The notes beneath the pieces are model-generated. The model saw nothing but the letters and a program-made list of their open reading frames with translations, was not told the DNA's origin and did no database searches. A stretch of 64,000 bases of DNA from Pseudomonadota bacterium (GTDB lineage Bacteria > Myxococcota_A > UBA796 > UBA9615). This document shows positions 9,564 to 64,000 of this stretch, piece by piece; positions within the stretch are counted from its first letter, which is position 1; each line of letters opens with the position of its first letter. The position numbers and the translations under genes are program-made. The stretch is taken from contig JAAESI010000117.1 in the NCBI GenBank assembly GCA_024229515.1, positions 22,419-86,418 on the forward strand, in the 5' to 3' direction.

Positions 9564-9577
9564 CCAGGCTCCCGGGC

Positions 9578-10324
9578 ATGAAGCTCCTGCTCCTGACGAT
9601 CGCCCTGCTGCTCCCGAGCGCCGCCCTCGCCGGCGACCCCTGCCCGATCACCCTCGAGCTGCACGAGTACACGCCGACGTGGCGCGATCGGGGGGCCGAT
9701 CTGGACGCGCTGGAGTCCCAGCGCAGCTGGTACGGACTCAACTACCGGGGGACCGAGACGGTGCGGGTTCGGCACGTCATCGCGGGCAGTCCCGCCGCCG
9801 CCTCGGGGCTCGCCGCCGGCGACCTGCTGACCTCCTTCAACGGCACGCCGATCACCAGCCGCAGCCACCTCGGCGAGCTGTTCGACGCCCTCGGCACCAG
9901 CAACAGCAAGGTCTCGCTGGGGGTCGATCGCAAGGGCACGGCCATGACCGTCGAGCTGGTGCGGGGCGCCGCCGACCCGGTCTTCTTCGGGCTCGTCAAC
10001 GCGACCGAATCGACCGAGTGTCGGTCGGTCTCGATCTGGAGCCTCACTGAAGCCCAGGCCGCCGCGGTCGCTTCCGGCGCGTTCACCGACCAGCGCGGCT
10101 TCCGCTGCGACGACGCCCACACGGCGATGGGCTCAGCCTTCGAGTCGGGCGACGTCATCATGATCCGGGGCGGCCGACGCATCCTCCTGACGATGCCGGG
10201 GTGGGGCACCACGTGCGTCGCGGTCGCCGACTACGACGGGGCGAAGCTGACGACCGACGCGCTGAGCGCGCTGCTCGAGAGGCTCGCGAAGGCCTACGTG
10301 GCCGACCGCCACGACAACCCCTAG
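9578..10324 (+). CDS. Secreted PDZ-domain protein
   Basis: ATG at 9578 inside longer ORF 8981..10324; signal peptide MKLLLLTIALLLPSAALA; PDZ-like segment VIAGSPAAASGLAAGDLLTSFNGTPI. Confidence 0.6.
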   Translation: MKLLLLTIALLLPSAALAGDPCPITLELHEYTPTWRDRGADLDALESQRSWYGLNYRGTETVRVRHVIAGSPAAASGLAAGDLLTSFNGTPITSRSHLGELFDALGTSNSKVSLGVDRKGTAMTVELVRGAADPVFFGLVNATESTECRSVSIWSLTEAQAAAVASGAFTDQRGFRCDDAHTAMGSAFESGDVIMIRGGRRILLTMPGWGTTCVAVADYDGAKLTTDALSALLERLAKAYVADRHDNP

Positions 10325-44008: not shown

Positions 44009-47116
<3,108 letters not shown>

Positions 47117-47219
47117 CGGGGATCTCCGGCCTCGAATCCTAGACGGCCCCCGCGTGCGCGTGAAGGGCTGAATGGGTGCAATAGGGTATCCCCCGGCCAA
47201 TTCGGTCTAGGGTTCGGCC

Positions 47220-48734
47220 GTGCGCATCGCCCTGCTGCAGTGTGAGTTGGAGCACCGTCACCAGGCCCCCCACCTGGCCATGTGCCTGTTCGCACGGGAC
47301 CTGCAAAACGCAGGACATGACGTCCACTGCGGGCTCGTCCACCCCTCCGCGTTGGATGCCGCGGGAGACGCCGCGAGCGGGGTCGATCTGCTCGTCTTGG
47401 ACTCGATCTTCCCGTTCGCGATGGTCCGCCGGCTGAAGGAGCGAACCGGCGCGACGGTGGTGATCGGCGGACACAACGCGCTGCAGCACGCGCTCCGAGG
47501 CCCCGCGGATCTGGCGATCGTCGGGCCGGGACGCCAGGCGATGACGTCGCTGGCCTGGGGAGCCGACCCCGCCCTCATCCCCGGGCTCTGGTGGAAGGAC
47601 CCCGAGGGCGTGCTGCAGGCGTCCCCGGCGGTGCCTGCGGCGCTCGAGTCCCAACTCCTGCCGTTCGATCCGTTCCTGGATTGGGACTACTACGGCCCCC
47701 CGCGGGCTCCCGGATCCAACCTTCGGGTGCCGTCGATCGTGGCCGACTCGGGGTGCGTCTGGAATCGGTCCGCAATCGGCGACGGCGGGCCCTACGCAGG
47801 GATCGCACCGCGGCTCCCCGACGTCCGCCTGGGGCCCGAGGCGACGAAGCAGATCCAATCGACGTTCATTGCCCGCGAGGGAGGCTGCACCTTCTGCGCG
47901 TTTCGCTACACCCCGCACGAACGCGGGGGGGCCGTCGAGGCGGTGCTCGCGCAGGCGGATGTCCTGATCGAGCGGGGCGCGCGGGGGCTGTCGTTGCAGA
48001 CGGAGCACCCCCTCCCCATCACCGCGGCGGTGCTGGACGGACTGGCGGGACGGGGGCTGGACGAGCTCCACATCCGCACGATCCCCTGGCTGCTGAACCG
48101 GAACGTGGCGCTGCTGGATGAGGCCATCGCGGCGGCGGAGCGGACGGGCATCCGGTTGGTGCTCGCCCAGGTCGGGTTCGAAGCCTTCGACGACGCGACC
48201 CTCGGCATCTACCACAAGGGCCTGTCGGGCTCGGAGAATCGGGCGGCGGCGCGGCTGTTGGGGGAGCGCACGGCGGCCCACGACGGCTTCCTCGGGACCG
48301 CCGGCCACGGCCTGGTGCCGCTTCACCCCTGGTCCACGCCGGAGGGGCTGCGCACGACGCTGACGGCGTGCCGCGAGGACGCCCCCTGGCTGCTCCCCCA
48401 GCTGACCCCGGCCAGTCGGATCGAGCTGTACGACGAGTACTCACCGCTGTTCTGGAAGGCGCAGGACGACGGCCTCGTGCAACCCAACCCCGCGTCCTTC
48501 GGTTGGGATTGGACTTGGGCGGATCGCCGCACCGGCGAAGCGGTGGCGGCCTGGGGGGCGATCCTTGAAGCGGCCGTCGCCCCCGAAGCGACCACTGCGG
48601 CGGTGGTGCTCGATGGGGTATTGCACGCCCTGGAGCATCAGTCGAACCCCCAAGATCGTCGGAAGCACTACCTCGACATGCGCGACCGCGCCCGACGCAC
48701 TAAGTTGGATATTCAGGAGTGGAGAGAGCCATGA
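47220..48734 (+). CDS. Hypothetical protein, possibly B12-binding-domain/radical-SAM-like with a non-canonical Cys motif
   Basis: 504 aa; N-terminal Rossmann-like segment (MRIALLQ...DLLVLDSIF...ATVVIGGHNA) resembling B12-binding domains of class B radical SAM enzymes; Cys cluster C-x40-CTFC instead of CxxxCxxC; stop overlaps next gene (ATGA). Confidence 0.4.
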   Translation: MRIALLQCELEHRHQAPHLAMCLFARDLQNAGHDVHCGLVHPSALDAAGDAASGVDLLVLDSIFPFAMVRRLKERTGATVVIGGHNALQHALRGPADLAIVGPGRQAMTSLAWGADPALIPGLWWKDPEGVLQASPAVPAALESQLLPFDPFLDWDYYGPPRAPGSNLRVPSIVADSGCVWNRSAIGDGGPYAGIAPRLPDVRLGPEATKQIQSTFIAREGGCTFCAFRYTPHERGGAVEAVLAQADVLIERGARGLSLQTEHPLPITAAVLDGLAGRGLDELHIRTIPWLLNRNVALLDEAIAAAERTGIRLVLAQVGFEAFDDATLGIYHKGLSGSENRAAARLLGERTAAHDGFLGTAGHGLVPLHPWSTPEGLRTTLTACREDAPWLLPQLTPASRIELYDEYSPLFWKAQDDGLVQPNPASFGWDWTWADRRTGEAVAAWGAILEAAVAPEATTAAVVLDGVLHALEHQSNPQDRRKHYLDMRDRARRTKLDIQEWREP

Positions 48735-49705
48735 CCCGGCTGTTGATCGCGCTGTTCGTCGCTGGCCTGCTGGCCGGATGCCCATCCGAACCGGAGGAGG
48801 AGCGGCCCCCGATCGTCGCCTTCGAGCCGGCCGTGGTGGAGCTCGGCCAATGGACCGTCACCACCGACGGGCTGCCTGAACCGGTCACGGTGCGGCTGGC
48901 CAACCGCGGCTTCGGCCGCGTCTCCGTCACCACCGTCGGCATCGCGGACGACAGGATCGTCACGACGCCGTCGGCGGAACTGCCCGCCGAGGTCGAGCCG
49001 GGCGCGTGGCTGACCATCACCGTCGCGTACGCCGCGAGCCCGACCGGCCCCGTGGACATCAAGACGACGCTGGACGCGACCGTCCGGGCGGTCGGCGACG
49101 CGTTCGACCAGTTCGCCGTGGCGTCCGCGGACGTGCGGGTGATCCTGCTGTGCGACGCCGACGGTGACGGCTACACCGGCGCCGGCTGCGCGGGGCCTGA
49201 CTGCGACGACGAGGACGTCTTCCACAACCCCGCCTCCGAGGAACTCTGCAACGGGCTCGACGATGACTGCAACGGCGTCGCGGACGCCGACGGGGAGGAA
49301 GCCGACGACGACGGCGATGGGCACCTCAGCTGCGCCGAGTGCGACGACGGGGACCCCACCGTGAACCCCGACGCGACCGAGCTGTGCGATGGCGGCGACA
49401 CGGACTGCAACCCCGCGACCTTCTTCGAGGACGGTGAGATCGACTACGACTCGGACGGCTTCCTCAGCTGCGAGGAGTGCGACGACGAGGACCACGACAA
49501 CTCCCCCGACGGCACGGAGATCTGCGACGGCCAGGACAACGACTGCGACGGGGAGCTGTCGGACGCGGAGATCGATGGCGACGGCGACGGGCAGAGCGAG
49601 TGCGACGGCGACTGCGACGACGCCAACCCGGACCGCAACCCCTTCGCCCCGGAGACCGCGGGCGACGGGCTCGACAGCAACTGCAACGGCAACGACGACG
49701 ACTAG
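48731..49705 (+). CDS. Lipoprotein with about 4 MopE-like Cys/Asp-rich repeats
   Basis: GGAGAGAG RBS then ATG 48731; lipobox LLAGC; same repeat type as the 44009..47116 protein (CDDEDVFHNPASEELCNGLDDDCNG etc.). Confidence 0.7.
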   Translation: MTRLLIALFVAGLLAGCPSEPEEERPPIVAFEPAVVELGQWTVTTDGLPEPVTVRLANRGFGRVSVTTVGIADDRIVTTPSAELPAEVEPGAWLTITVAYAASPTGPVDIKTTLDATVRAVGDAFDQFAVASADVRVILLCDADGDGYTGAGCAGPDCDDEDVFHNPASEELCNGLDDDCNGVADADGEEADDDGDGHLSCAECDDGDPTVNPDATELCDGGDTDCNPATFFEDGEIDYDSDGFLSCEECDDEDHDNSPDGTEICDGQDNDCDGELSDAEIDGDGDGQSECDGDCDDANPDRNPFAPETAGDGLDSNCNGNDDD

Positions 49706-49711
49706 CGGCGC

Positions 49712-51517
49712 TCAGCTCCGCGGCTTGGACCGGGGCTCTTCGGCCCGAATCTGGCGACGAAGGCGCCGCGCCTCCTCCGAGGGTCGCGAGTCCAGCTGCT
49801 CCCGCAGGACGCGGACCAGGGAGCCGTACTGGTCCATGGCGTCCACCCTGCGCCCGCCCTCCAGCAGGGTGCGGATCAGGCGGAGGTGGATGTCCTCCCG
49901 CAGGGGATCGACGGCGACGGCCCGACGCAGCAGGCTGACGTCGCCGCTGTTGCCGTCCAGCGCGCGGCGGTAGCGGTCCAGGCGGAGCAGCACATCGATG
50001 CAACGCTCGCGGAAGCGGCTCCGCGGATCAATGGTCCAGACCGCGTCCTCCACCCCTGCGAAGAGGTCACCGCGGTACAGGTCGAGCGCCGCCTGGAGGT
50101 GTGCCCTGGCCGCCCTCTCCGAATCGCCCTGGGCCTCCGCGGTGCGCGCCTTCGCGATGGCGTCTCGGAAGCGCCACAGATCGACGGAAGCGCCCGCCGG
50201 AAGCGCGAGGGAGTAGCGGTCGTTCTCGCAGACGAGCCAGCTGACCGCGCTCTTGTCCTTGTTCGGGCCCAGGGCCTTGCGGAGGGCATAGACCACGCCA
50301 TGCAGGCGGTTCTTGGCCGCCTCGGGCTCGACTCCCGGCCAGAGCAGGCGGGCCAACTGCGAGCCCGCCACGGTCCGTCCGGGCTTGAGCACGAGGAGCT
50401 GGAGCAGCTCCACCGCCTTGCGGCGTGCAAACGCGGAGCGTGGGAGGGGCTCGCCGTCGAGGTGGACCTCGAAGCTGCCGAAGCAGCGGATCTCGACCGG
50501 CGGCTGCACCGCCGCCGGCGGCGGGCCGAGGGCGGGAGGGCGGGGGCCGCGCCAGGCTTCGATGAGCCCCAGCGAGGGGGCGACATAGCGGGTCAGCGGC
50601 AGGGGCACGTGATCGGTGTAGGAGAGCCGGGCGATCCCCTGCAGCACGCCCCCCCGCTCCAGCGGCAGGCAGTACCGGACCTTCGCCGGTCCGCAGCGTT
50701 CCAGGCATGGCTCCGGCCAGTGGACCGAGTCGCCCTCGAGCACCGCCAGGCCCACCTCGCGGACCGGGGCGCAGTCGGCCAGGGACATGTCCCTGGAGCT
50801 CAACGCCAGCCCCCGCGGGCCGACCTCGGCGTTCGACGGCGGGCCGAGCCGGAGCAGGGCCACGTCCGCCGCGGTGAGGGTCCGGAGGCGCTCCCTCAGA
50901 TCCCCTCGAACGTCCGCGTTCGGCCCGACCCAGGCGGCCGCCGAGGCGAGCAGGGCGCTGCCGACGATGCTCCCCAGGCCGGCCAGCACCCGGCCCACCC
51001 GCTCGAAGTCGACGTCGTCTCGCTTCCAGCCGAGGTTGAGCGTGCCGAGCACCCGCCCTGCGGCCCCGATGGGCATCGAGATGAAGGACTTGTACCCCGC
51101 CGCTTTCACGCCGGAGCGCAGGAACCGCTCGTCGTTGTCCAGGCAGCTGGTCTGCACCGCGGCGTTGGTCTGCACCGCCAGGCCGGGGTAGCCATCGGCC
51201 AGGCTGAACCGGCTGATCTCGGCAAAGGTGGCGGCGTCGCAGCCCCGGTGCAGCGTCAGGAGCAGCTCGAGCCCGTCGGGGCGGAGCAGGAAGCACTCCG
51301 CCGAGTCCGCACGGGTGGCGCGCCGCAGCATCTCAAGCACGTCGTCGAGGCTGTCGGCCAGCCTCTGCGGGTCGAGCATCAACGCGGCGCGGCCGATCAA
51401 CGCTAGGTCGCGTTCGTTTCGGCCGATCCGCCGTCGCGCGACAACGGTTCCGTCCAACCGTTCCTGGCCCGGGGGCATGGCCAGGAGGTTGTTGTCTGCT
51501 CGTCCAGACTTCGACAC
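49712..51517 (-). CDS. GAF-domain transcriptional regulator with SARP-type winged helix and BTAD domain
   Basis: 601 aa; N-terminal GAF-like region; winged-helix segment (VEIRCFGSFEVHLDGEPL...HGVVYALRKALG); C-terminal BTAD-like helical repeats. Confidence 0.7.
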   Translation of the reverse strand: MSKSGRADNNLLAMPPGQERLDGTVVARRRIGRNERDLALIGRAALMLDPQRLADSLDDVLEMLRRATRADSAECFLLRPDGLELLLTLHRGCDAATFAEISRFSLADGYPGLAVQTNAAVQTSCLDNDERFLRSGVKAAGYKSFISMPIGAAGRVLGTLNLGWKRDDVDFERVGRVLAGLGSIVGSALLASAAAWVGPNADVRGDLRERLRTLTAADVALLRLGPPSNAEVGPRGLALSSRDMSLADCAPVREVGLAVLEGDSVHWPEPCLERCGPAKVRYCLPLERGGVLQGIARLSYTDHVPLPLTRYVAPSLGLIEAWRGPRPPALGPPPAAVQPPVEIRCFGSFEVHLDGEPLPRSAFARRKAVELLQLLVLKPGRTVAGSQLARLLWPGVEPEAAKNRLHGVVYALRKALGPNKDKSAVSWLVCENDRYSLALPAGASVDLWRFRDAIAKARTAEAQGDSERAARAHLQAALDLYRGDLFAGVEDAVWTIDPRSRFRERCIDVLLRLDRYRRALDGNSGDVSLLRRAVAVDPLREDIHLRLIRTLLEGGRRVDAMDQYGSLVRVLREQLDSRPSEEARRLRRQIRAEEPRSKPRS

Positions 51518-51709
51518 GGGTGCGTAGTGGTGCTTTCGGCTGAGGTTCTGCGGGTGGACTTAGCAAGAACCACGCCCGGAATCAACGGCCCTCGCGTGGG
51601 CCGTCGGAAGGGTCTGTCAGCTGCTGGGGGACCGTACCCGGGCCTATTTGCACATCCGGAGTGTGCGATATGGCCCAGCCCGGCGAGCCTTCGATCGGCT
51701 CCGACCAGC

Positions 51710-53617
51710 TTACGCCTCCGTCGACAGTCCGTAGCGCTTGTCGATGCCGATGATGTGCCCGACGAGCCAGGTCTCCAGGAAGATCATGAAGCGGTCCAGC
51801 ACGTCCGGATCGCCCGAGCCGGCCTCCTCCCGGAGCCCGTGGACCTGCGCCAGGAGCTGCTTGTGCGTCTCCTTGTGCTGGTCGAGGTCGGCGTACCCGA
51901 TGGACTCCATGTAGACCTCTTCGGCGGCGAAGTGGACCCGCGTGTACTCGATGACACCGTCCATGACCGGCCAGATATCCTCGATGTGGCGACCGCGCTG
52001 GATGACCTCGTCCAGGTCGTTGATCAGCCCGATCAGGGTGCGGTGCTGGTCGTCCATGTCGGGCACGCCGACGCTGTACTTCTCCCCCCACTGCATCAGC
52101 GGCGCAAGCACGTCGCCGGGCAGGACCCGGGTCTGGTCGGCGTACTGCGACTCGAACCCGACCGGCGCCTGCGTCATCTTCGTCACGACCCGGTGCATCC
52201 ACACCAGGCAGAACAGCGACAGCACGAACATGAACATCCAGCAGCTGGTCCAGATCCCGGTCCCCTCCAGCAGGTAGCCGAACAGGATCGGGCAGACGAA
52301 GCCGCCGAGGCCGCCGAGCACACCGACCATGCCGCCGACGACGCCGACTTCGTTGGGGAAGTAGTCGGGGATGTGCTTGTAGACCGCCGCCTTGCCGATG
52401 CCCCAGATGGCGCCGAGCAGGATCGCGAGGCCCGCGAACACCCACACGTTGGCCTGGAAGTAGATGCGGGTGACGCCGCGGGCGAGCAGCTGCTTCCGCT
52501 TCACGGCCTCGCCGACCTTCACCATCGGCTCGTGCCAGACGTCCTTGGACGGCAGGATGAGGGTCTCGTCGTCGCCCGTGATCAGGTTCGCGGGCCTCTT
52601 GTCGACGGGGTACGAGGTCTCGCCGACGACGATCGCGTCGGGGAGGATCTCCGAGACGACGCCGTCGCCGCGGGCGATCACGCCCTTGCCGGGGGAGACG
52701 ACCTCCATCTTCGGCACGATCAGCAGGAGGCTGACCAGGACCGAGGTGCCCAGTACGCCGTACATCACCTTGCGAGCACCGAACTTGTCCGACGCCCACC
52801 CGCCGAGCGCGCGGATGACGCCCGAAGGGAAGCTGAACGCCGCCGCGAGGGCACCGGCGGTGACCAGGGTGAGGCCGTAGACGCTGACGAAGTACGGGAC
52901 CAGCCACTGCGAGAAGGCGACGAAGCAGCCGAACACGAGGAAGTAGTACAGGCCGAAGCGCCAGACCCGCATCTGCTTGAGCGGCTTGAGCAGGCCGGCG
53001 AGGGTCTTGCTGGAGACCTCCGGCTTCTTGTTCTCCGTGAGCAGGAGGAACAGCACGGCCACCACGACCATCATCACCGCGTAGTAGACGGGGAGCTGGC
53101 GCCAGTTCTCGAGGTCGGCCCCGTCGTTGGTCAGCCGGTTCAGGAGGGTCGGAGCGAGGATGGTCGTGCCGGCGGCGCCGGCGTTGCCCGCCCCGAAGAT
53201 GCCCAGGGCCGTGCCCTGGTTCTTCTGCGGGTACCAGACCGACGTGAACGCGATGCCGATGGCGAAGCTGGCGCCGCACATTCCGAACCCGAAGCTGCAC
53301 AACGCGAAGGTGAAGAAGGAGTTCGCGTGGGACAGCAGGTACAGCGGGATCGCCGCCAGGAACAGCAGCGACGCGAAGACCGGCTTGCCGCCATAGCGGT
53401 CCGTCAGGATGCCGGCGGGCAGCCGGAAGATCGCGCCGGTCAACACCGGGATGCCGAGCAGCCAGCCGATCTCGACCGGACCCCAGTCGAACACCTGGTT
53501 GCTCGCCAGGAACGTCACGAGGACGCCGTTGAGCATCCAGCAAGCGAAGCAGACCGTGAACGCGAACGTGTTCACCGTCAGGATTCGATGGGAAGTAGCG
53601 GTGGCCTCCTTCAGCAT
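51710..53617 (-). CDS. narK: NarK-type nitrate/nitrite transporter (MFS, NNP family) fused to a C-terminal bacteriohemerythrin domain
   Basis: 635 aa; MFS helices with NNP signature GIFGAGNAGAAG; an 85-aa insert between the two 6-helix halves; C-terminal 125 aa with hemerythrin motifs (DDQHRTLIGLINDL, HFAAEEVYM, DQHKETHKQL, WLVGHIIGIDKRYG). Confidence 0.8.
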   Translation of the reverse strand: MLKEATATSHRILTVNTFAFTVCFACWMLNGVLVTFLASNQVFDWGPVEIGWLLGIPVLTGAIFRLPAGILTDRYGGKPVFASLLFLAAIPLYLLSHANSFFTFALCSFGFGMCGASFAIGIAFTSVWYPQKNQGTALGIFGAGNAGAAGTTILAPTLLNRLTNDGADLENWRQLPVYYAVMMVVVAVLFLLLTENKKPEVSSKTLAGLLKPLKQMRVWRFGLYYFLVFGCFVAFSQWLVPYFVSVYGLTLVTAGALAAAFSFPSGVIRALGGWASDKFGARKVMYGVLGTSVLVSLLLIVPKMEVVSPGKGVIARGDGVVSEILPDAIVVGETSYPVDKRPANLITGDDETLILPSKDVWHEPMVKVGEAVKRKQLLARGVTRIYFQANVWVFAGLAILLGAIWGIGKAAVYKHIPDYFPNEVGVVGGMVGVLGGLGGFVCPILFGYLLEGTGIWTSCWMFMFVLSLFCLVWMHRVVTKMTQAPVGFESQYADQTRVLPGDVLAPLMQWGEKYSVGVPDMDDQHRTLIGLINDLDEVIQRGRHIEDIWPVMDGVIEYTRVHFAAEEVYMESIGYADLDQHKETHKQLLAQVHGLREEAGSGDPDVLDRFMIFLETWLVGHIIGIDKRYGLSTEA

Positions 53618-53648
53618 CTTGGTGTGTCTCCAGGGACGCCTCGCCCGA

Positions 53649-55289
53649 TCAGCAGCTGCGGGCGGAGCCCTTTCTCACGTAGAACCACCAGTTCACGACC
53701 AGGCAGGTGGCGTAGTAGCCGGCGAAGCCGTACAGCGCGTACTCCGGCGTTCCGTTCTTGATCTGCTGGCCGAAGATCTTGGGGATGAGGTACGCCCCGT
53801 AGGCGGCGACCGCGGCCGTCCAGCCGAGCACGGGACCGCGCAGGTCCTTGTCGAACAGCACGCCGATCATGCGGAAGGTCGAGCCGTTGCCGATCCCGGT
53901 CATCGCGAAGAGGATGATGAAGAGGATCAAGAAGGGCATGAAGTACTGGGTCGGGTCCTCGGACCGGGCGGCCGCCGCGGTGAACCAGCCCGCGCCGATC
54001 GTCGCCGCGACCATCACGATCGTGCTCCAGTGGGTGACCTTCGATCCGCTGTCGATCTTGTCGCTGAGCCAGCCGCCGACGGGCCGGATCAGCGCGCCCA
54101 CGCCCGCGCCGATCCAGATGTAGGCCGCCGACTTCATCCCGGTCGGGTCGCCGGCGTGCTCGCCCACCCGGATGACGCCGAAGACGTCGTCGATCAGCTT
54201 GGGGAAGGCGTTGGCGTAGCCGATGAAGGAGCCGAACGTCATGACGTACAGGTAGGTCATGATCCAGTTGTCCCGCTCGCTGAAGATCGCGAACTGGCCC
54301 TGGAGGTTCTTCTTTGTTTCCGCGGGGGTGAGGTACCTCAACAACGCCAGCGTCGTGACGATCGCCACGATGGCCACGAGGAACGTCTTCAGGAGCACCG
54401 GGAAGCCGCCCCAGGGGATGATCAACAGCACGATCGCGAGCGCCGCGCCGGCGAAGCCGAGCGTGGTCATCCAGAGGTGCTTGCCCACCGCCACCGGGGT
54501 CGGCCCGCAGTGGTGGAAGGGCATGTTGTCCATGAACAGGAACGCGAGGATCGTGCAGGTGATGATGATCGGCACCCACACCAGGCCCGCGTTCTGGACC
54601 CACATCTGGGCGGCCGCCCCATCGGCGGCGTAGCTGTACGGGTCGCCGCCCATCGCTCCGAACATCCCGAACGTGATCGCCCACGGGATCAGGAACTGCA
54701 TGGCGCTGACGCCGAGGTTGCCCAGCCCCGCGTTCAGCCCGAGGGCCAGGCCCTGCATCTTCTTGGGGAAGAAGAAGCTGATGTTGGACATCGACGACGA
54801 GAAGGCGCCGCCTCCGGTGCCGGACAGCGCCGCGAGGATGATGAAGACGTAGTAGGGCGTGTCGGGGTTCTGCAGCGCGATCCCGGCGCCCAGGGCGGGC
54901 AGGATCAGCAGCAGCGTGGTCATGAACTTCACGTTCCGACCGCCGACGATCGAGATCATGAACGAGTTGACGATTCGGAGGGTGGCGCCGGACAGCCCCG
55001 CCACCGCCGGCAGCAGGAACAGGAGCCCTCGGTAGCCGCCGTCGTCGTACGGCTGCCCGTCGTTCATGAAGGTGAAGTTGAAGAGCTCGCCGTCGGTCCC
55101 GAAGTGGAGCTTCTGGATGTACTTGGCGACCATGCCCCAGTAGATCCAGACCGCGAACCCCAGGAACAGTTGGGGGATCGACACCCACAGGTTCCGGTTG
55201 GCGACCTTCTTGCCCTCGGACTCCCAGAACTGTTCGTCCTCGGGTTCCCAACGGGTCAGGCGGCTGGCGGGGTTCGGACGATCGGTCAT
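53649..55289 (-). CDS. narK: NarK-type nitrate/nitrite transporter (MFS, NNP family)
   Basis: 546 aa, 12 predicted TM helices, NNP signature GLNAGLGNLG; overlapping ORF 53611..55251 is an off-frame artefact. Confidence 0.85.
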   Translation of the reverse strand: MTDRPNPASRLTRWEPEDEQFWESEGKKVANRNLWVSIPQLFLGFAVWIYWGMVAKYIQKLHFGTDGELFNFTFMNDGQPYDDGGYRGLLFLLPAVAGLSGATLRIVNSFMISIVGGRNVKFMTTLLLILPALGAGIALQNPDTPYYVFIILAALSGTGGGAFSSSMSNISFFFPKKMQGLALGLNAGLGNLGVSAMQFLIPWAITFGMFGAMGGDPYSYAADGAAAQMWVQNAGLVWVPIIITCTILAFLFMDNMPFHHCGPTPVAVGKHLWMTTLGFAGAALAIVLLIIPWGGFPVLLKTFLVAIVAIVTTLALLRYLTPAETKKNLQGQFAIFSERDNWIMTYLYVMTFGSFIGYANAFPKLIDDVFGVIRVGEHAGDPTGMKSAAYIWIGAGVGALIRPVGGWLSDKIDSGSKVTHWSTIVMVAATIGAGWFTAAAARSEDPTQYFMPFLILFIILFAMTGIGNGSTFRMIGVLFDKDLRGPVLGWTAAVAAYGAYLIPKIFGQQIKNGTPEYALYGFAGYYATCLVVNWWFYVRKGSARSC

Positions 55290-55354
55290 CGGTCTGCCTT
55301 CATCGCTTCAGCAGCGAGGTGGAGCGTCGATCTCGTCGACCTCGGATGTCTGGA

Positions 55355-56083
55355 TCAGTTGTTCTTGGGCCGCGTCGGGCTCCAGGGGGTCTTCGGATCC
55401 CGGATCCGATCCTTGTTCCAGTTCCACATCACCTGCTGGTAGGGCCGGGAGATGTAGTGCAGCGGCGCCACGAAGATGTGCACGAGGCGCGTGAACGGGA
55501 CCATGAAGAGGATCAGGAACGCGCCGAAGATGTGCAGCTTGATGACCACCGGCAGGGCGAACACCGCGGCGGTCTCGGGGCTGAGCTTGAACAGCGACCA
55601 CAGGTACGGCGAGAGGTCGGCGGCGAACCACGAGGACCCCCACCGGAAGCCGAGGGCGACCCAGCAGCCCAGGACGACCTGGGCGAGCAGGAGCAGCTCG
55701 ATGGCGATGTCCATCCTGGTGGTCACGGCCTTGATCCGCTCGTTCGTCAGGCGACGATGGAGCAGGCCCACGAGGCCGACCAGGATGCTCATCCCGAAGG
55801 TGACCGCGGTGACCTCGAGGATGATCAGCCGGACCGGCTGACCGTTCCAGGCGAGGATCGCCGCCGGCACGAGGAACGCCAGCAGGTGTCCGCCGAGCAC
55901 GATGAGCAGTCCGATGTGGAACGGCATCACGCCCCAGAAGAGCTTCTTGCCCTCCAGGAACTGGGACGACAGCGAGCTGACCTTGAAGCCCGTCTGGCGG
56001 TACCGGATGGCGGTGCCGATGACGAACGTGATCATCGCCACGTAGGGGAACGCGACGAACATGAAGGTGTTCAGGGTGTTCAT
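55355..56083 (-). CDS. narI: Respiratory nitrate reductase gamma subunit (membrane cytochrome b)
   Basis: 242 aa, five TM helices with conserved His ligands, position after narJ. Confidence 0.85.
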   Translation of the reverse strand: MNTLNTFMFVAFPYVAMITFVIGTAIRYRQTGFKVSSLSSQFLEGKKLFWGVMPFHIGLLIVLGGHLLAFLVPAAILAWNGQPVRLIILEVTAVTFGMSILVGLVGLLHRRLTNERIKAVTTRMDIAIELLLLAQVVLGCWVALGFRWGSSWFAADLSPYLWSLFKLSPETAAVFALPVVIKLHIFGAFLILFMVPFTRLVHIFVAPLHYISRPYQQVMWNWNKDRIRDPKTPWSPTRPKNN

Positions 56084-56844
56084 GTCAGCTTCCCGATTCC
56101 GTAGATCCGTTGTTGGGGCTGGGGCGGGGGGACGGCCGTCGACGGCTTGTGTCCCGCGCCCTTCTCTTCGATGTCGAGCTCACGCCCGATCGACGCGAGG
56201 AAGGGGCTGGTCTCCTCGGGCCGGCCCGAGGGGCCGATGCCGAAGTCGTGTCGCACGATGTGCAGCAGCGTGACCAACGCGTTGCGGTAGACGAGGGCTC
56301 GGTCCTGCGACGTCGCGATCAGCGTCTTGTTGTACTTCTGGTAGACGGCGTTCCGAGCTTCGGTCTGCTGCTCGCCGAACTCCCGCACCATCTCTTCGAG
56401 CGCCGGGTGGAAGATCATCTCGACGAACTCGACCACGATCTCCTCGTCCTTCCAGCGCGCCAACAGGCGCAGGACGTTGGGCAGGTGGTCGGCCAGCTCG
56501 CTGCCGCAGTCGATGCCCGCGGCGCGGTGCTCGCGCCGCAGGTTGACCAGCACTTCGGCGCGCTTGTAGTCGTCGCCGAAGGCGATGTAGCCGATGTCCA
56601 GCGTCGTGACGGCCTGCACCTGGAACGACCGGGTGAACAACTCCTGCGCCTCGTCCAGCTCGGCGTCGGTCAGGATCGGCCCCCCGTCGCCGGGGAGCAG
56701 GTCAGCGAAGGCCTTCAGGGCCGGCTCGGCGTGCTCGTACCGACTCTCGACGTGGGCACGCGCCTCCGCAACCCGCGCCGGAAGGTCCGGTCCGGGGTAG
56801 TCGAAGAGCGCCGCGAGGAGCTCGTAGTGGTCCATCGGGATCAT
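56080..56844 (-). CDS. narJ: Nitrate reductase molybdenum cofactor assembly chaperone
   Basis: 254 aa from ATG 56844 (MIPMDHYELLAALFDYPGPD...) embedded in longer ORF 56080..57735; between narH and narI. Confidence 0.8.
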   Translation of the reverse strand: MIPMDHYELLAALFDYPGPDLPARVAEARAHVESRYEHAEPALKAFADLLPGDGGPILTDAELDEAQELFTRSFQVQAVTTLDIGYIAFGDDYKRAEVLVNLRREHRAAGIDCGSELADHLPNVLRLLARWKDEEIVVEFVEMIFHPALEEMVREFGEQQTEARNAVYQKYNKTLIATSQDRALVYRNALVTLLHIVRHDFGIGPSGRPEETSPFLASIGRELDIEEKGAGHKPSTAVPPPQPQQRIYGIGKLT

Positions 56845-56846
56845 GC

Positions 56847-58400
56847 TCAGCTCCCCCGCTCGGCGGAGCCGTCCTTGAACCCGAAGCCGGTGTTCCCCTT
56901 CACGTCGCCGGTGAACTCGAGCATCTCGATCGCCTGCTCGCGGTGGGCGGCGGGCACGACGAACCGGTCGTCGAACTTGGCCAGCGAGGTCAGGTAGTAG
57001 ATGTCGTCTGCCAGCTCCGCCGTCAGGCCGACGTCGGCCAGGGTCTTGTCGGCCTTGGCGTCGGTGATGTCGCCGACGGTAACGCGGCGGCGGTGGATGC
57101 GCACGGCCATCAGCTTCTTGAGCCGATCGATGACCATGGCCTCGTCGCCGTTGCTGAAGAGGCTCGCGAGGTACTTCATCGGCATCCGGGCCTGCTCGAT
57201 GGTGCCCCAGAGCTCTTCGGTGCTCGTGTCGTACAGCCAGTTGTCCGGCCAGTACTTCGCGATGTCGTGCATCTTCTCGGACTGCGCCGTGTTGTCGACG
57301 TCCTTGACCGAGGCCATCACCGGCAGCATCGGCGGCACGTAGAAGAGCATCGGGAGCGTGCGGAACTCCGGGTGCAGCGGCAGCGCCAGACCCCACGTCT
57401 TGATGAACTTGTACGTCGGCGAGTACTGCGCGGCGTGGATCGTCGAGTCCGCGATGCCGTTGGCCTTGGCCGAGGCGATCACCTTCTCGTCGAAGGGGTC
57501 CTGGATGATGTCCATGTGGTTGTTGACGAGGCTCGCGTCGTCGGACGAGGCGACCTGGTGGATCTTGTCCGCGTCGTACAGGAGCACCCCGAGGTAGCGG
57601 ATGCGGCCCACGCAGGAGTGCATGCACGCCGGCGCGTAGCCCGCCTCGATGCGGGGGTAGCAGAGGATGCACTTCTCGGACTTGCCGGTGTGCCAGTTGT
57701 AGTACGACTTCTTGTACGGGCAGGCCGTCACGCACATGCGCCAGGCGCGGCAGACGGACTGGTTGATCAGGACCACGCCGTCCTCACCGCGCTTGTACAG
57801 CGCCCCCGAGGGGCACGACGCGACGCAGGCGGGGTTGAGGCAGTGGTTGCAGATCCGCGGCAGGTAGAAGAAGCACATCCGCTCGAGCTGGAACATCGCC
57901 TCCTGCTCGGCCTCGGACAGGTCCTTCATGTTGGGATCTTTGCGCGCGTAGTCGGGCGTGCCCGACCAGTCGTCGTCCCAGTTGGGCCCCATCCGGATGT
58001 CCATCGGCTTGCCGGTGATCATCGAGATCGGACGCGCCGTCGGCTGATCGTCGCCGGCCGGCGACTCGATCAGGTCCAGGTAGCGGTAGGTGAACGGCTC
58101 GTAGTAGTCGCCGATCTCCGGCATGTGGGGGTTGTGGAAGATGTTCCGCAGCCCCTTCTTCTTGCCGGCTCCCTTGAGGTCGATCCCGTTGGCGTCCTTC
58201 TCCCAGCCGCCTTTGTAGATCTCCTGGTCTTCCCACTTGGTGGGGTAGCCCGTGCCAGGCTTGGTCTCCACGTTGTTCCACCACATGTATTCGGCGCCCT
58301 TGCGGTCCGTCCAAATGTTCTTGCATGCGATGGAGCAGGTGTGGCAGCCGATGCACTTGTCGAGGTGGAACACCATCGAGACTTGTGAGCGAATGTCCAT
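56847..58400 (-). CDS. narH: Respiratory nitrate reductase beta subunit (Fe-S)
   Basis: 517 aa; four Cys clusters (CIGCHTCSIAC, CNHCLNPACVASCP, CRAWRMCVTACPYKK, CILCYPRIEAGYAPACMHSC). Confidence 0.95.
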   Translation of the reverse strand: MDIRSQVSMVFHLDKCIGCHTCSIACKNIWTDRKGAEYMWWNNVETKPGTGYPTKWEDQEIYKGGWEKDANGIDLKGAGKKKGLRNIFHNPHMPEIGDYYEPFTYRYLDLIESPAGDDQPTARPISMITGKPMDIRMGPNWDDDWSGTPDYARKDPNMKDLSEAEQEAMFQLERMCFFYLPRICNHCLNPACVASCPSGALYKRGEDGVVLINQSVCRAWRMCVTACPYKKSYYNWHTGKSEKCILCYPRIEAGYAPACMHSCVGRIRYLGVLLYDADKIHQVASSDDASLVNNHMDIIQDPFDEKVIASAKANGIADSTIHAAQYSPTYKFIKTWGLALPLHPEFRTLPMLFYVPPMLPVMASVKDVDNTAQSEKMHDIAKYWPDNWLYDTSTEELWGTIEQARMPMKYLASLFSNGDEAMVIDRLKKLMAVRIHRRRVTVGDITDAKADKTLADVGLTAELADDIYYLTSLAKFDDRFVVPAAHREQAIEMLEFTGDVKGNTGFGFKDGSAERGS

Positions 58401-58441
58401 TTAGGCCTCCAGGGGTCGGTTCGGGGTGGAGGGGGAGGTCA

Positions 58442-61400
58442 TCAGAAGACCACCTTGTCCATGCGCTTGATGATCACGTGAGTGTCGCGCTGCGGAGCGA
58501 TGGGACCCCAGTAGTTGAAGTGGTAGGCGAACTGGCCGTAGCCGCCTGCCAGGTAGTTCGGCTTCAGGTGGATCCGCGTGAAGCTGTTGTGCCCGCCGGC
58601 CCGCTTGTTGCCGCGAACCTGGGACTTCGGGATGCCGACCGTGCGCTCGGGCACGTGGTAGACGATGCAGACCCCCTTGGGGATCCGCGCGCTCACCGTG
58701 CACCGGGTGCAGTAGACGCCGTGGTCGTTGTAGACCTCGACCCAGTCGTTGTCCTGGATGCCCATGGCCGCCGCGTCCGGCTCGCTGAGCCAGCAGGGCT
58801 CGCAGCCGCGGGACAGCGTCAACATCCGGTGGTTCTCCATGTAGGTGGAGTGGATGTGCCACTTTCCGTGCGGGGTCAGGCAGTTGAGGATCAGCGCCTC
58901 GCCGCCCTGCAGCGTCGTCTTGAGGTCACCGTAGGCCTCGGGCTTCGGAGACGGCTTGTAGGTCGGCAGGTTCTCGCCGTACGCGATGTACATCTCGTGG
59001 TCGAGGTAGAAGTGCTGCCGGCCCGTGAGGGTCCGCCACGGCACGCGCATGTCGACGTTGTAGGTGTAGGCGCAGTAGGCGCGGCCGTCGTTCATCAGCC
59101 CCGACCACAAGGGCGAGGTGTTGTAGCGGCGCGGCTGGGCCTGCAGGTCGGCGTACCGAATGCGGACGTCCTCGCTCCCCTTGCCCAGGTGCACGAGGTC
59201 GACGCCGGTCTTGGCTGCGGCGTTCTCGTAGGCCCGGACGTTGAGCTTGCCGTTGGTCAGGGTCGACAAGTGCAGCACCGCGTTGGCGGCGTACTCGTCT
59301 TCCTGGATCGACGGGAGCGTCTTGCCGTTGAACTTCCGCACCGGGAAGTGGTTCGACTCGATCATCTCCTCGTAGGCGTCGCCGGCATCGAAGTGGTTGC
59401 CGTGGGCGCCCAGGCCGGCGTCGATGATGCGGTCGCCGAGGGTGACGTACTTCTCGTACAGCTGGGTGTAGTCGCGGTCGACGATCGCCAGCTTGTGCAT
59501 CGTCTTGCCGGGGATCGGCTCGCACTCGCCCAGGTACCAGTCCTGCACGTTCCGCATCGCGATCTCGCCCGGCGAGTCGTGCGCGATGGGAGCGGAGATG
59601 ATGTCCTTCTTGGGACCGGAGAAGTACTGCAGCGCGGCCCCGGACGTGGCCTTCGCCAGCGTCCTGAAGATGTCCCAGTCCGTCTTCGACTCCCACACCG
59701 GCGGGATGGCCGCCGACAGGGGGTGGATGAAGGAGTGGAGGTCCGTGCTGTTGAGGTCCGCCTTCTCGTACCAGGAAGCCGCCGGCAGGACGATGTCGGA
59801 GTAGAGCGCCGAGCTGTCCATGCGGAAGTTCAGGTTGACGATCAGGTCCATCTTCCCGCGGGGGGCGACGTCATGCCACTTGACGTCTTCGGGGCGCTGG
59901 TCGGAGTCCTCGCCGATCGCGTTGCTGTGGGTGCCCAGGTAGTGCTTGAGGCAGTACTCGTGCCCCTTCATGGAGCCCATGATCGCGTTGCCGCGCCAGA
60001 TGTACCAAACGCGCGGGAAGCTGGCCTCGGCGTCGGGATCGCTGACGCAGTAGTTCAGCTGCTTCGACTTGAGCTTGTTCAGCACGTACTGCTGGATGGC
60101 CCCGTCGTCGCTGGCGCCCTGGCTCTGGGCCTCCTCACAGAGGTCGAGCGTGTTCTGGTCGAACTGCGGGAAGAAGGGCATCCAACCGAGCCGCACGGCC
60201 TTGAAGATCGTGTCGGCGGTATGCTTCCGGGTCCAGTCGTTGTCCGGCACGGTGTTGTACCGGCTGAACTGACCGTCGTAGCGGTACTGGCAGGTGTTGA
60301 TGTAGTGCCAGATGGGCGCCTGCTGGAGCCGCACCGCAGCGTGGTGATCCTTGCCGAAGGCGATCGTGCCCCAGGAGTCCACCGGAGCCAGCTTCTCCTG
60401 GCCGACGTAGTGGTTCAGGCCGCCGCCGTTCTTGCCCACGCAGCCCGAGAGCATGAGGGCCATCGCCCCGGCGCGGTACATCAGGTTGGCGTGGTACCAG
60501 TGGTTGATACCGGCACCGATGATGATCATGCACTTGCCTTCGGTCGTGTTGGCCGTGGCGGCCCACTCCCGAGCAAACTGCAGCACCGTCTTGGAGTCGA
60601 CGCCCGTGAAGATCTCCTGCCACGCCGGCGTGTACGCGGCGTCCTTGTCGGTGTAGTCGGTCGGGTACGCGCCCTGAAGGCCGCGGTTGATGCCGTACTG
60701 ACCCATGATCAGGTCGTAGACCGTCGCCACCGCCACGGGGCCGTGGTTGGTGTCCACCTGCATGACGGGCACGCCGCGGTAGACCGTGGTGTCCAGCCCG
60801 AACTCGGTGAAGGCGCACTGCGCGACCTCGGTGCTGCGGTCCAGCAGCGTGAGGACCGGGTCGTACGGCTGATCGTCGACGATGTTCTCGTGGAGCGTGT
60901 TCCAGTTGCCGGGCTTGTCGTCCCAGCGCGCTCCCGAGGAGCCCTTCGGCACGACCAGGCGGCCGCTCTCCTGGTCGAGGTTCACGAACTTCCAGTCGCC
61001 GTTCGTGATGCCCTCGAACTGGGCGAGGTCGCCAGCGCGGAGCAGGCGGCCGGGCTTGTAGCGGTCGCCGTCCTTCTCGAGCTCGACGAGGAAGGGGCTG
61101 TCCGTGTGCTTCTTGACGTAGTCGAGGAAGTACGGGGTCTTGGCCTTGTGGTGGAACTCCGTGAGGATGACGTGCGTGACCGCCATCCAGAAGGCGCCGT
61201 CGCTGCCGGCGTGGATCGGGACCCACTGGTCAGCGTACTTGCAGACCTGGCTGAAGTCGGGCGCGAACACGACCGCCTTGGTGCCGTTGTGGCGCGACTC
61301 CGCGAAGAAGTGGCAGTCCGGGGTGCGCGTCATGTTCAGACACGCGCCCATGTCCGCGATCATCTTGGAGTTGTACCAATCGGCGCTCTCGCAGACGTCG

Positions 61401-62059
61401 GTCTGCTCGCCCCAGATCTCGGGGAACGCCGTGGGCAGGTCGCAGTACCAGTCGTAGAAGCTGAGGTTCACTCCGCCGAAGAGCTGGAGGAACCGGCCGC
61501 CGGCGGCGTAGCTCAGCATCGACATGGCCGGGATCGGGGAGAAGCCGATGACCCGGTCCGGACCGTAGTCCCGCGCCGTGCGGATGTTCGCCACGGCCAT
61601 CAGCTCCAGGACCTCGTCCCAGTGGGCGCGCCGAAAGCCGCCCTTGCCGCGGGCCGTCTGGTAGGTCTGCCGCGCCCGCGAGTCGGACTGCAGCGCCTCC
61701 CAGGCCTTCATCGGGTCGCCGCCGTTGGACGCCTTCTTCGAGCGCCAGGCATCCAGCAGCGCGCTGCGGATCAGCGGGTACTTGATGCGCAGCGGGCTGT
61801 AGAGGTACCAGGAGTAGGAGATGCCGCGCTGGCAGCCCCGGGGCTCGTACGGAGGCAGTGAGTCCTCGAGCAGCGGGTAGTCCAGCTGCTGGGTCTCCCA
61901 CACGACGATGCCGTCCTTGACGTGGACCTGCCACGAGCAGCCGCCGGTGCAGTTCACACCGTGGGTGCTGCGGACGATCCGGTCGTGCTGGAAGCGGTTC
62001 CGATAGAACTCCTCCCACTTGCGGGTCTGCGGGGAGATGATGTCTTTGATCCAACCCAT
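58442..62059 (-). CDS. narG: Respiratory nitrate reductase alpha subunit (Mo-bisMGD catalytic subunit)
   Basis: 1205 aa; N-terminal FS0 motif [11 protein letters not shown]; conserved throughout. Confidence 0.95.
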
Positions 62060-62089
62060 GGCTTATTCCGTTCCTTGGAGCTCTGTGCG

Positions 62090-62983
62090 CTAGATGGAGT
62101 CGACCTGGCGGTCGTAGATGGCCTGGTTGACCGATCCGCGCTTGCGGTTGCCCCAGATCAGCGAGTACAGGAGGAGGAGGAGGACGGTTCCGACCGCGCC
62201 GCTGGCCGCGAGCTTGAGGCCCGTGTCCCGCGGGAGGTGGTTGCTCTGCTCGGAGCTGACCTGCTCGAGGAAGCTGACCAGGGCGACCACCTCGGCCTCC
62301 TCGAGGGAGCGGTCCTCGTAGGCGGCCTGCATGACCGGGAAGGGCGGGCTCCCCAGGATCGCGCGGACGCCGTTGCCGCCGAGGCGACCGAACACCGTCG
62401 TCAGCTCGCGGGCGAGGATGCCGCCGCCGATGATCGCGTCGTTGGTGACGTCGTGGCAGGAGATGCACGACGGTCCGCCGTGGGCGAGCCGCGTCTCGCC
62501 GGTGAACAGATCCTGTCCAAGCTGGATCTGCTCGGGGGTCGCGGGCGGCTCGACGGGAGCCGGCGTGGGCTCCGGGGCCGCCTCTCCGCCGCCCCCGTCC
62601 GCCGCGGGGGGAGCCCCCGAGGCCTGGACGTAGCCCAGGATCGCGTCGACCTGGACCGCCGTCAGCGGCTGATCCGGCATCGGGATGTTGTTGTACTCGG
62701 CGAACAGCTCGACCGCCGTGGGGTCACCGTCCTTCACCATCTTCTGCGAAGCCGGAATGAACTGGTGCAGCCACTCCTTGGTCCGCCGCTCCGTGACCCC
62801 CTGGAGGTCCGGTCCGACGAGGCGGCCGCCGCCAATGCTGTGGCACGCGGCGCAGGTTGTCTTGAAGAGCTTCTCTCCGTCCTGGGCTGCGGCTGCCCGG
62901 GGCAGCAGCAGTCCGCCGATCGCGATCGCGAGGGCGACGGCTCCGACGGGGAGGGTCAAGAGGGTGGCGGTATTTCGACGCAT
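62090..62983 (-). CDS. Membrane-anchored diheme cytochrome c, NarC-like
   Basis: ATG 62983 (MRRNTATLLTLPVGAVALAIAIGG signal/anchor); two CxxCH motifs (CAACH, CISCH); C-terminal hydrophobic anchor; immediately upstream of narG. Confidence 0.7.
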   Translation of the reverse strand: MRRNTATLLTLPVGAVALAIAIGGLLLPRAAAAQDGEKLFKTTCAACHSIGGGRLVGPDLQGVTERRTKEWLHQFIPASQKMVKDGDPTAVELFAEYNNIPMPDQPLTAVQVDAILGYVQASGAPPAADGGGGEAAPEPTPAPVEPPATPEQIQLGQDLFTGETRLAHGGPSCISCHDVTNDAIIGGGILARELTTVFGRLGGNGVRAILGSPPFPVMQAAYEDRSLEEAEVVALVSFLEQVSSEQSNHLPRDTGLKLAASGAVGTVLLLLLYSLIWGNRKRGSVNQAIYDRQVDSI

Positions 62984-63174
62984 GGCCTGCCTTCTCCCGG
63001 CCGCGCACAAGGTCGTACGCGGTTGTCGCGGGAGGTATAGGGGAGGCCGCTTACAGCCCACTTACGGGACCCGACTTTGTTCGGCAGCGGCTCGTCTTTC
63101 GCACGAGGAGGCCGCTATGGTTCGTCGACTGGAGGTGTCGTCTGTCCGCCGAGCTGCCCCTGCATGCCGCGCTC

Positions 63175-63615
63175 GTGCACGTCCCCCTGGGGGGGGCGCT
63201 GCTGATGCCGCTGGTGGCGGCGATCCTTCTGGCCACCCCGCGAGAGGACCGACGGACCTGGGCGGCCGCCTGCCTGCTCCAGGGGGCGATCCTGCTCGGA
63301 GGCCTGATCGCGGCGGCCGCCGGCGAGGACGATGGCCTGGCGATCCAGTTCCTCGTCGACGCCGAGGTGATCGCCGCGCACGAGACGGCCGCCCACTGGT
63401 TCCTGGCCGCCGCCGCCGCGACCCTCGTCGCGTTCGGTGTCGGCTTCGCGGGGCGCGAAATGGTCCGTCGGCGACGGGCGGCGGCGGCGGCCCTGCTGCT
63501 GGGCCTGCTCACGGCGGGGCTGGGGGCACGGGCCGGGCACCTGGGCGGTCAGCTCGTCTTCGAGCATGGCGCCGTCGAAGCCCACCAGCAGGGGAGCCCC
63601 CCCCCGGGCGGCTGA
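63175..63615 (+). CDS. Hypothetical small membrane protein
   Basis: GTG-start ORF with four hydrophobic segments; conserved-looking sequence continues upstream of the GTG with no canonical start, so the 5' end is uncertain. Confidence 0.35.
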   Translation: MHVPLGGALLMPLVAAILLATPREDRRTWAAACLLQGAILLGGLIAAAAGEDDGLAIQFLVDAEVIAAHETAAHWFLAAAAATLVAFGVGFAGREMVRRRRAAAAALLLGLLTAGLGARAGHLGGQLVFEHGAVEAHQQGSPPPGG

Positions 63616-63693
63616 TCGGGGTTGTCGTCCTCCCCCCGGTGTGCGATTAGTGCGCGCCTGCAGCCCACCTGAGGGCTCGAATCGAGGTCCCTG

Positions 63694-64000
63694 ATGACGA
63701 ACACTGCCAAGAGGTACGAGCTGGTCGAGGCCGCGTGCGCGTTCTGGTTCGGCGCCGACAAACGCATGCGGAGCCCGTTCCCGGAGGCCATCCGGCCCGA
63801 GCTCAAGGAGAACGCGCAGCGCGAGTACGTGCTGTGGCTGCGCAACCTGACCGAGACGGACAAGTCGGAGGTCGAGGACGAGGAGCTCGCCGGCGTCTTC
63901 GAGCAGCTGCTCTTCCGCGAAGCGCTCAAGCTCGTCGGCGAGGCCGACACCGACCTGCTGCTGACGATCCACTACCCCTTCATGCCGCGCCTCGGCGACC
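63694..64000 (+). CDS. Hypothetical protein, 3'-truncated by the window edge
   Basis: ATG 63694 preceded by GAGG; open frame to the window end with high GC3; not in the ORF track because no stop is reached. Confidence 0.45.
   Translation, partial: MTNTAKRYELVEAACAFWFGADKRMRSPFPEAIRPELKENAQREYVLWLRNLTETDKSEVEDEELAGVFEQLLFREALKLVGEADTDLLLTIHYPFMPRLGD

Follow-up and report, generated by a model that had tools for sequence, protein, structure and literature searches.

The 64,000-nucleotide stretch of contig JAAESI010000117.1 analyzed here (hereafter, the window) most likely carries a chromosomal operon that encodes a membrane-bound respiratory nitrate reductase, facing the cytoplasm and made up of four subunits, NarC, NarG, NarH and NarI; we put the probability of this reading at roughly 0.85. 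Seven co-oriented, tightly packed genes, namely narC, narG, narH, narJ, narI and two genes for transporters of the NarK family, occupy positions 51710-62983 of the minus strand, in agreement with a preceding sequence-only reading of the window, which had placed all seven there, on one strand that it did not specify, with tight or overlapping junctions. The gene identities and order, the conserved ligands, the homology to Thermus proteins, the conserved synteny and the native composition of the operon are directly established. Taken by itself, the operon represents a known type of enzyme in an ordinary form, and its layout is common in uncultured mesophilic bacteria.

A NarC-type nitrate reductase operon

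NarG, NarH and NarI all exceed the cutoffs of the curated equivalog models (TIGR01580, TIGR01660 and TIGR00351, respectively), and the cofactor ligands are conserved, including the FS0 ligands H33, C37, C41 and C76 and the molybdenum ligand D207 in NarG, as well as the heme histidines 56, 66, 184 and 202 in NarI. The window NarG is 57% identical to its Thermus counterpart and 44% identical to that of E. coli; among plasmid-borne NarG proteins of cultured organisms, those of Thermus are the closest, at the same 57%, whereas the classical proteobacterial ones reach 46% at most. NarH and NarI are, respectively, 58% and 44% identical to the Thermus proteins. From narC to the last transporter gene, the junctions calculated from the coordinates measure 30, 41, 2, -4, 65 and 31 nt; the first of these separates the narC stop at 62090 from the narG start at 62059 on the same strand, and the negative value is a 4-nt overlap at the narJ/narI start. 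The Shine-Dalgarno-like motif GGGAGAAGG lies upstream of the narC ATG. The GC content at third codon positions (GC3) is 0.90-0.97 in the seven called frames, which, together with the conserved catalytic residues, excludes a chance set of open reading frames.

The cytochrome c encoded by the first gene is a true NarC homologue. The sequence-only reading had called it narC-like, with two CxxCH motifs and a C-terminal anchor as expected for NarC; both features were confirmed, and specific similarity to the Thermus protein was found as well, with an alignment to NarC of Thermus thermophilus that extends over 229 aa and covers both heme domains (32% identity, E 4e-22). The two motifs are CAACH and CISCH, and the Pfam domain Cytochrom_C matches residues 34-121. 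As read from hydropathy, with no dedicated predictor, the protein has only two hydrophobic segments, a signal-like one at residues ~4-34 and a C-terminal anchor at ~254-278, the latter followed by a basic tail. In an alignment of 15 NarC sequences that includes Thermus, C45, C48, H49, C174, C177, H178 and the F216-P217-V218-M219 stretch are invariant; the methionine of the FPVM motif is a candidate axial ligand, and the hydrophobic segment at the C-terminus is likewise kept in all 15 sequences. More than 1100 homologues of this NarC were found in databases, and the best 120 of them are all 51-100% identical to it. An exact copy is present in public records (MCP4869907.1). A translated search of plasmids with NarC retrieved c-type cytochromes on 14 Thermus plasmids, at 71-75% query coverage; in T. 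thermophilus SG0.5JP17-16 (pTHTHE1601) and NAR1, this cytochrome is encoded directly upstream of narG, a position that identifies it as NarC.

Scanning one genome per species with the NarC alignment yielded 80 related loci, all in genomes assembled from metagenomes, and their synteny was scored by translated searches with the window proteins. The labels of these loci span ~10 phyla and include Gemmatimonadota, Myxococcota (Polyangiaceae, Nannocystaceae), several gammaproteobacterial orders, Acidobacteriota, Planctomycetota, Bdellovibrionaceae and several candidate phyla. The narC homologue is directly followed by narG, at a distance of 17-110 nt, in all 77 loci that have sequence downstream, and narGHJI is complete in 51 of the 52 loci with room for it; a gene at the narJ position is likewise kept in 51 of these 52. 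Over 146 aa, the window protein at this position aligns with Thermus NarJ at 38% identity (E 1e-18).

The narJ-like chaperone is longer than that of Thermus (254 aa vs 171 aa). Its C-terminal tail of ~100 aa is rich in proline and glutamine near its end and matches no family model.

By analogy with characterized enzymes, we infer how the subunits associate, which paths the electrons take, in which direction catalysis runs and how the operon is regulated. As in the E. coli and Thermus enzymes, NarI would oxidize quinol at the periplasmic face, and the electrons would pass through two b hemes and the iron-sulfur clusters of NarH to the molybdenum-bis-molybdopterin guanine dinucleotide (Mo-bisMGD) cofactor of NarG, reducing nitrate to nitrite in the cytoplasm. 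NarJ would insert the cofactor, the NarK1-type transporter would import nitrate, and the NarK2-type transporter would swap nitrate for nitrite. NarC, presumably anchored by a single C-terminal helix and carrying two periplasmic c hemes, is expected to bind NarI and to be required for assembly as it is in Thermus, where genetic and two-hybrid experiments indicate that NarC is needed for NarG maturation and membrane attachment and interacts with NarI (PMC7694296). In addition, NarC could open a side branch by which electrons leave NarI for acceptors in the periplasm, such as nitrite, nitric oxide (NO) or nitrous oxide (N2O) reductases; for the nitrite and NO reductases, this role is taken from the Thermus work (PMC7694296).

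The next gene downstream of the transporters, on the same strand, encodes a GAF-BTAD protein that is 27% identical over 514 aa (E 1e-37) to DnrS, the oxygen-responsive activator of the Thermus nar operon (PMC7694296). A DnrS homologue adjoins the narC operon in 14 of the 80 related loci. The window protein is a likely anoxia-responsive activator that would control expression of the operon at least in part.

Between the GAF and winged-helix domains of this regulator lie two cysteines, C249 and C271, that all 12 homologues compared, Thermus DnrS among them, have in common; 8 of the 12 have two more. These cysteines may represent the oxygen- or redox-sensing site of the DnrS family.

Table 1. The nar operon and adjacent features, with coordinates in the window
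Feature	Position	Strand	Remarks
narC, membrane-anchored periplasmic diheme cytochrome c	62090-62983	-	297 aa
narG, Mo-bisMGD catalytic subunit, cytoplasm-facing, without Tat signal	58442-62059	-	TIGR01580 1392 bits vs cutoff 1084
narH, iron-sulfur subunit	56847-58400	-	TIGR01660 633 bits vs cutoff 524; Fer4_11 and Nitr_red_bet_C domains
narJ-like assembly chaperone	56080-56844	-	254 aa, long C-terminal tail
narI, diheme b quinol-oxidizing membrane subunit	55355-56083	-	PF02665 209 bits; TIGR00351 121 bits vs cutoff 106
NarK2-type transporter, narT-like, probable nitrate/nitrite antiporter	53649-55289	-	546 aa
NarK1-type transporter with C-terminal bacteriohemerythrin domain	51710-53617	-	635 aa; MFS_1 and Hemerythrin domains
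Bacteriohemerythrin domain, residues 507-634 of the 635-aa transporter	51716-52099	-	predicted cytoplasmic; NF033749
Beta-rich insert between transmembrane helices 9 and 10 (TM9/TM10) of the NarK1-type transporter, residues 302-390	52448-52714	-	predicted periplasmic
dnrS-like regulator, 601 aa	49712-51517	-	GAF_2, Trans_reg_C, BTAD (Pfam); 192 nt downstream of the transporters
Divergent intergenic region, presumed nar promoter site	62984-63174	.	Shine-Dalgarno-like motif before the narC ATG
DUF2231 membrane protein, divergent from narC	63175-63615	+	PF09990 32 bits

A nitrate transporter fused to a hemerythrin domain

The transporter pair consists of one NarK1-type and one NarK2-type protein. 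The 546-aa transporter best matches E. coli NarK and Thermus NarT, at 37-40% identity in two blocks (37% for NarT), and scores ~250 bits with the NarU and TIGR00886 models, below their cutoffs; the 635-aa transporter, for which the best match is Thermus NarK (41% over 311 aa), also falls under the TIGR00886 cutoff. Both proteins keep the substrate-binding arginines, R105 and R402 in the former and R65 and R269 in the latter, aligned with R89 and R305 of E. coli NarK. Given these best matches, the order in the window, NarK2-type followed by NarK1-type, is the reverse of narK-narT in Thermus. Among the 45 related loci with room for both transporter types, 19 encode both, with NarK1 first in 17 and NarK2 first in 2. 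The two narK genes listed in the sequence-only reading do not form a plain pair, given that the second encodes a NarK1-hemerythrin fusion.

The hemerythrin domain scores 117 bits with the NF033749 model, against a cutoff of 84, and its best matches among solved structures are Methylococcus bacteriohemerythrin (4xpx, E 1.3e-17) and DcrH. Across 27 fusion proteins, none of the seven di-iron ligands (H525, H562, E566, H581, H585, H621 and D626) varies, and ~100 database clusters of proteins of 634-643 aa, at 57-73% identity, carry both the major facilitator superfamily (MFS) and the hemerythrin domains, so that the fusion is real and under selection. The AlphaFold model of the fusion protein (mean predicted local distance difference test score, pLDDT, 79) comprises 12 transmembrane helices, a disordered linker (residues 480-505) and a four-helix bundle, which is predicted to be cytoplasmic under the usual MFS topology. 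The fusion is also encoded directly upstream of another narC operon, and elsewhere it occurs alone, for example, in a Bdellovibrionaceae genome. The lack of hemerythrin matches in the 80 related loci could be read as rarity of the fusion, a reading that we rejected because the loci with the gene order of the window end before the fusion point; in the loci where NarK1 precedes NarK2, there is no space for a hemerythrin domain on the NarK1-type gene. We found no description of a NarK-hemerythrin fusion in the openly searchable literature, with subscription journals and domain-architecture databases lying outside this search.

Oxygen has long been known to inhibit nitrate respiration at the step of nitrate transport, and no sensor for this effect is known to us. 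We hypothesize that the hemerythrin domain of the importer probably links nitrate uptake to O2 or NO in the cytoplasm. More tentatively, the domain might be an O2 (or NO) switch that acts directly on the transporter, with O2 binding at the di-iron site closing nitrate uptake post-translationally, a specific mechanism that we consider possible, if rather doubtful. If true, the fusion would give a molecular handle on the oxygen inhibition of nitrate transport. The importer-hemerythrin fusion is the most novel lead of this locus and a candidate, amenable to testing, for a direct control of nitrate uptake by oxygen.

Origin of the operon, alternative readings and flanking genes

We constructed a neighbor-joining tree of concatenated NarG and NarH, rooted with E. 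coli and lacking support values, in which all NarC-linked enzymes cluster together and Thermus branches off deepest among them. The window enzyme falls together with the marine relative described below, with a Nannocystaceae genome and Polyangiaceae UTPRO1, and with one genome of doubtful label; a coherent cluster of Gemmatimonadota lies beside this set. With the caveat that the depositor labels of metagenome-assembled genomes are unreliable, the tree is patchy by phylum, and Polyangiaceae-labelled genomes fall into two separate clades. This patchiness makes ancient transfers within the NarC-type family likely, and ancient cross-phylum transfers are plausible for the family as a whole.

For the window operon, the sequence-only reading had suggested horizontal acquisition, a proposal that was not borne out. 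Several features could be taken to indicate recent transfer from a donor similar to Thermus or other Deinococcota, or on a mobile element such as the Thermus nitrate-respiration conjugative element (NCE): the nar cluster is mobile in Thermus (PMC7694296), Thermus provides the closest match from cultured organisms in the plasmid collection, the NarGH tree is patchy at the phylum level, and the total GC content of the operon, 0.65-0.66, is below the ~0.70 of the flanks. The low total GC, however, is due to the first two codon positions and hence to amino-acid composition, and we rejected it as a transfer signal after splitting it by codon position: GC3 is equal to or above that of the flanks, and in synonymous codon usage, the nar genes have distances of 0.067-0.115, compared with 0.066-0.25 for the other 36 genes, so that in both measures the operon cannot be told apart from the housekeeping genes around it. 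On either side, in the window and 10 kb past its end, we detected no integrases, transposases or tRNA genes and no flanking repeats, and scans for repeats and tRNAs that could mark island borders returned only chance-level matches and coding repeats. The mobile context typical of Thermus (plasmid or element genes, transposases, toxin-antitoxin, nrc, dnrT and drpAB) was not encountered in the window, where the neighbors are housekeeping genes. Whereas NarG is only 57% identical to that of Thermus, it is 75-95% identical to homologues from environmental genomes (loci L006-L088, with NarC at 44-64%), and in the NarGH tree, the window joins the Nannocystaceae- and Polyangiaceae-labelled genomes rather than Thermus. 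The nearest relative, from other marine metagenomes, has a NarG that is 92% identical, the same operon and the same upstream neighbors. Because this organization is normal in the relatives, horizontal acquisition of the locus is unsupported; the operon looks native to the chromosome and not recently acquired, and a recent transfer appears highly improbable.

The enzyme might, alternatively, run in reverse, as a Nitrobacter-type cytoplasm-facing nitrite oxidoreductase in which NarC takes up the electrons of NarI and delivers them to a terminal oxidase. Nitrobacter hamburgensis has a very similar cluster, including a NarC homologue, and its enzyme oxidizes nitrite (PMC7694296); enzymes of the NarG type are reversible in principle, with a periplasmic cytochrome c as a natural electron exit. 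Nevertheless, the window NarG scores above the narG equivalog cutoff, and the operon carries a homologue of the activator of anoxic nitrate respiration in Thermus. In Nitrobacter, the gene order is nxrA-nxrX-nxrB, whereas the 41-nt gap between narG and narH in the window has no nxrX-like gene inside. The same operon is, furthermore, found in genomes labelled as lineages known as heterotrophs, such as Gemmatimonadota, Myxococcota and Acidobacteriota, and overall, we regard nitrite oxidation as very unlikely. It also seems quite unlikely that the cytochrome c is a co-transcribed periplasmic carrier, serving, for instance, a nitrite reductase or an oxidase, and not a structural subunit of the reductase. 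Its modest 32% identity to Thermus NarC would be compatible with such a carrier, as would the first heme domain, which is a generic class I cytochrome c with SCO1-fused and alternative complex III (ACIII)-type domains as the nearest solved structures, and no curated NarC family model exists. These points are opposed by the gene's unvarying place beside narG, seen in 77 of 77 loci across ~10 phyla, by the conservation of the C-terminal anchor and the second domain with Thermus NarC, and by the properties of the Thermus homologue, which binds NarI and is required for Nar maturation (PMC7694296).

We therefore prefer the four-subunit respiratory nitrate reductase, and the following observations weigh against it. 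The narJ-like protein has no Pfam match and reaches 25.8 bits with TIGR00684, compared with a cutoff of 59. A scan of positions 49500-64000 for sigma-70 promoters and intrinsic terminators, which is uninformative at 70% GC, revealed no promoter-like site and no minus-strand terminator. Homologues of Thermus DnrT, DrpA, DrpB and NrcD/E/F/N were searched for in the window and not found, so the regulatory and donor modules of Thermus are only partly mirrored. The window contains no nir, nor or nos genes, which leaves the electron-branching role of NarC without support. The caveats on the NarGH tree and on the labels that it carries count on the same side.

A 2020 review describes NarC as absent from the nar operons of mesophiles (PMC7694296); apart from the Nitrobacter remark, we found nothing relevant on NarC outside Thermus in the openly searchable literature, subscription journals being outside the search, so that this negative, like the one for the fusion, carries little weight. 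The wide spread of NarC among uncultured mesophiles contrasts with this statement of the Thermus literature (PMC7694296). In several phyla of uncultured mesophiles, NarC-type reductases may rank among the main forms of Nar. Given the 77 of 77 loci in ~10 mostly mesophilic phyla, the proposed NarC bypass, which would lead electrons from quinol to denitrification enzymes in the periplasm, may be of broad importance in soils and oceans.

Upstream of narC, the DUF2231 gene is kept in the nearest relatives (L006-L009), at 67% identity. It is the first of three genes divergent from narC, followed by a 150-aa open reading frame, which is split at the window end, and a gene for a 218-aa hemerythrin-domain protein; this trio spans positions 63175-64000 of the window and 8166-9809 of locus L002, the organism's own contig past the window end. 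The same divergent trio is located upstream of narC in the nearest relative, in loci L006-L008, which share the 150-aa and hemerythrin genes in addition to DUF2231 (the hemerythrin protein has 217 aa there). A separate hemerythrin-domain protein is also encoded in the nar cluster of Thermus NAR1 (locus L093, 8293-8859); searches of the window for a protoglobin and for the Thermus 188-aa hemerythrin protein yielded no matches. In some related genomes, a second, divergent NarC-like gene lies just upstream of the narC operon (as in L014, 7984-9442, where it is accompanied by a NarI-like gene, and L041, 9336-9728).

The other 50 kb of the window encode UvrA, PBP1A, HisRS, thiolase, a sigma-70 factor, TatC, methylmalonyl-CoA mutase, biotin carboxylase, D-Ala-D-Ala ligase, signaling proteins and MopE-repeat proteins. 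The latter include two large, cysteine-rich proteins with putative metal-binding repeats of the MopE type identified with Pfam, one with 15 repeats (44009-47200, minus strand) and one with 4 (48719-49705, plus strand), with a radical-SAM-like gene between them (47220-48734). For the Myxococcota-like background named in the sequence-only reading, the MopE-repeat proteins and the NarGH neighbors are no more than suggestive; HisRS homologues and matching database clusters carry the labels 'Proteobacteria' or 'Deltaproteobacteria bacterium', or no label. The 10 kb past the window end, from the organism's own contigs, encode a topoisomerase, a TetR regulator and similar genes.

Comparison with known systems

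The closest characterized system is the Thermus narCGHJIKT cluster, which encodes NarCGHI on the NCE element. It has the same core order, narC-narG-narH-narJ-narI, and then two transporter genes, one of the NarK1 and one of the NarK2 type, with the window proteins 32% (NarC), 57% (NarG), 58% (NarH), 38% (NarJ), 44% (NarI), 41% (NarK) and 37% (NarT) identical to their Thermus counterparts. Accordingly, the Thermus-like narCGHJIK1K2 layout proposed in the sequence-only reading holds insofar as the window has narCGHJI plus two transporter genes, unlike narGHJI of E. coli, but the order of the transporters is inverted. A DnrS-type GAF-BTAD regulator is linked to the operon in both cases, downstream and on the same strand in the window, in contrast to the upstream, divergent dnrS of Thermus. 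The window further differs from Thermus in the hemerythrin domain and the periplasmic insert on the NarK1-type transporter, and in being without the genes for DnrT, DrpA/DrpB and the Nrc dehydrogenase. In Thermus, the operon is carried on a megaplasmid or conjugative element along with genes for transposases and toxin-antitoxin systems, whereas in the window, the surroundings are chromosomal housekeeping genes, and the window, unlike Thermus, comes from a marine metagenome.

E. coli narGHJI has the same cofactor ligands in NarG, NarH, NarJ and NarI as the window, and a NarK2-type antiporter is present in both; in contrast, the E. coli nar locus, with a NarG that is 44% identical to that of the window, has no cytochrome c gene, has narK upstream and is regulated by NarXL. 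The window hemerythrin domain shares the four-helix bundle and all seven di-iron ligands with McHr of Methylococcus and DcrH of Desulfovibrio, but is located at the C-terminus of an MFS nitrate transporter, whereas McHr and DcrH are free or attached to a chemoreceptor. The narC operons of uncultured genomes share with the window the narC-GHJI core and the NarK1 and NarK2 transporter types; in most of these, NarK1 precedes NarK2 (17 of 19), an order that is reversed in the window.

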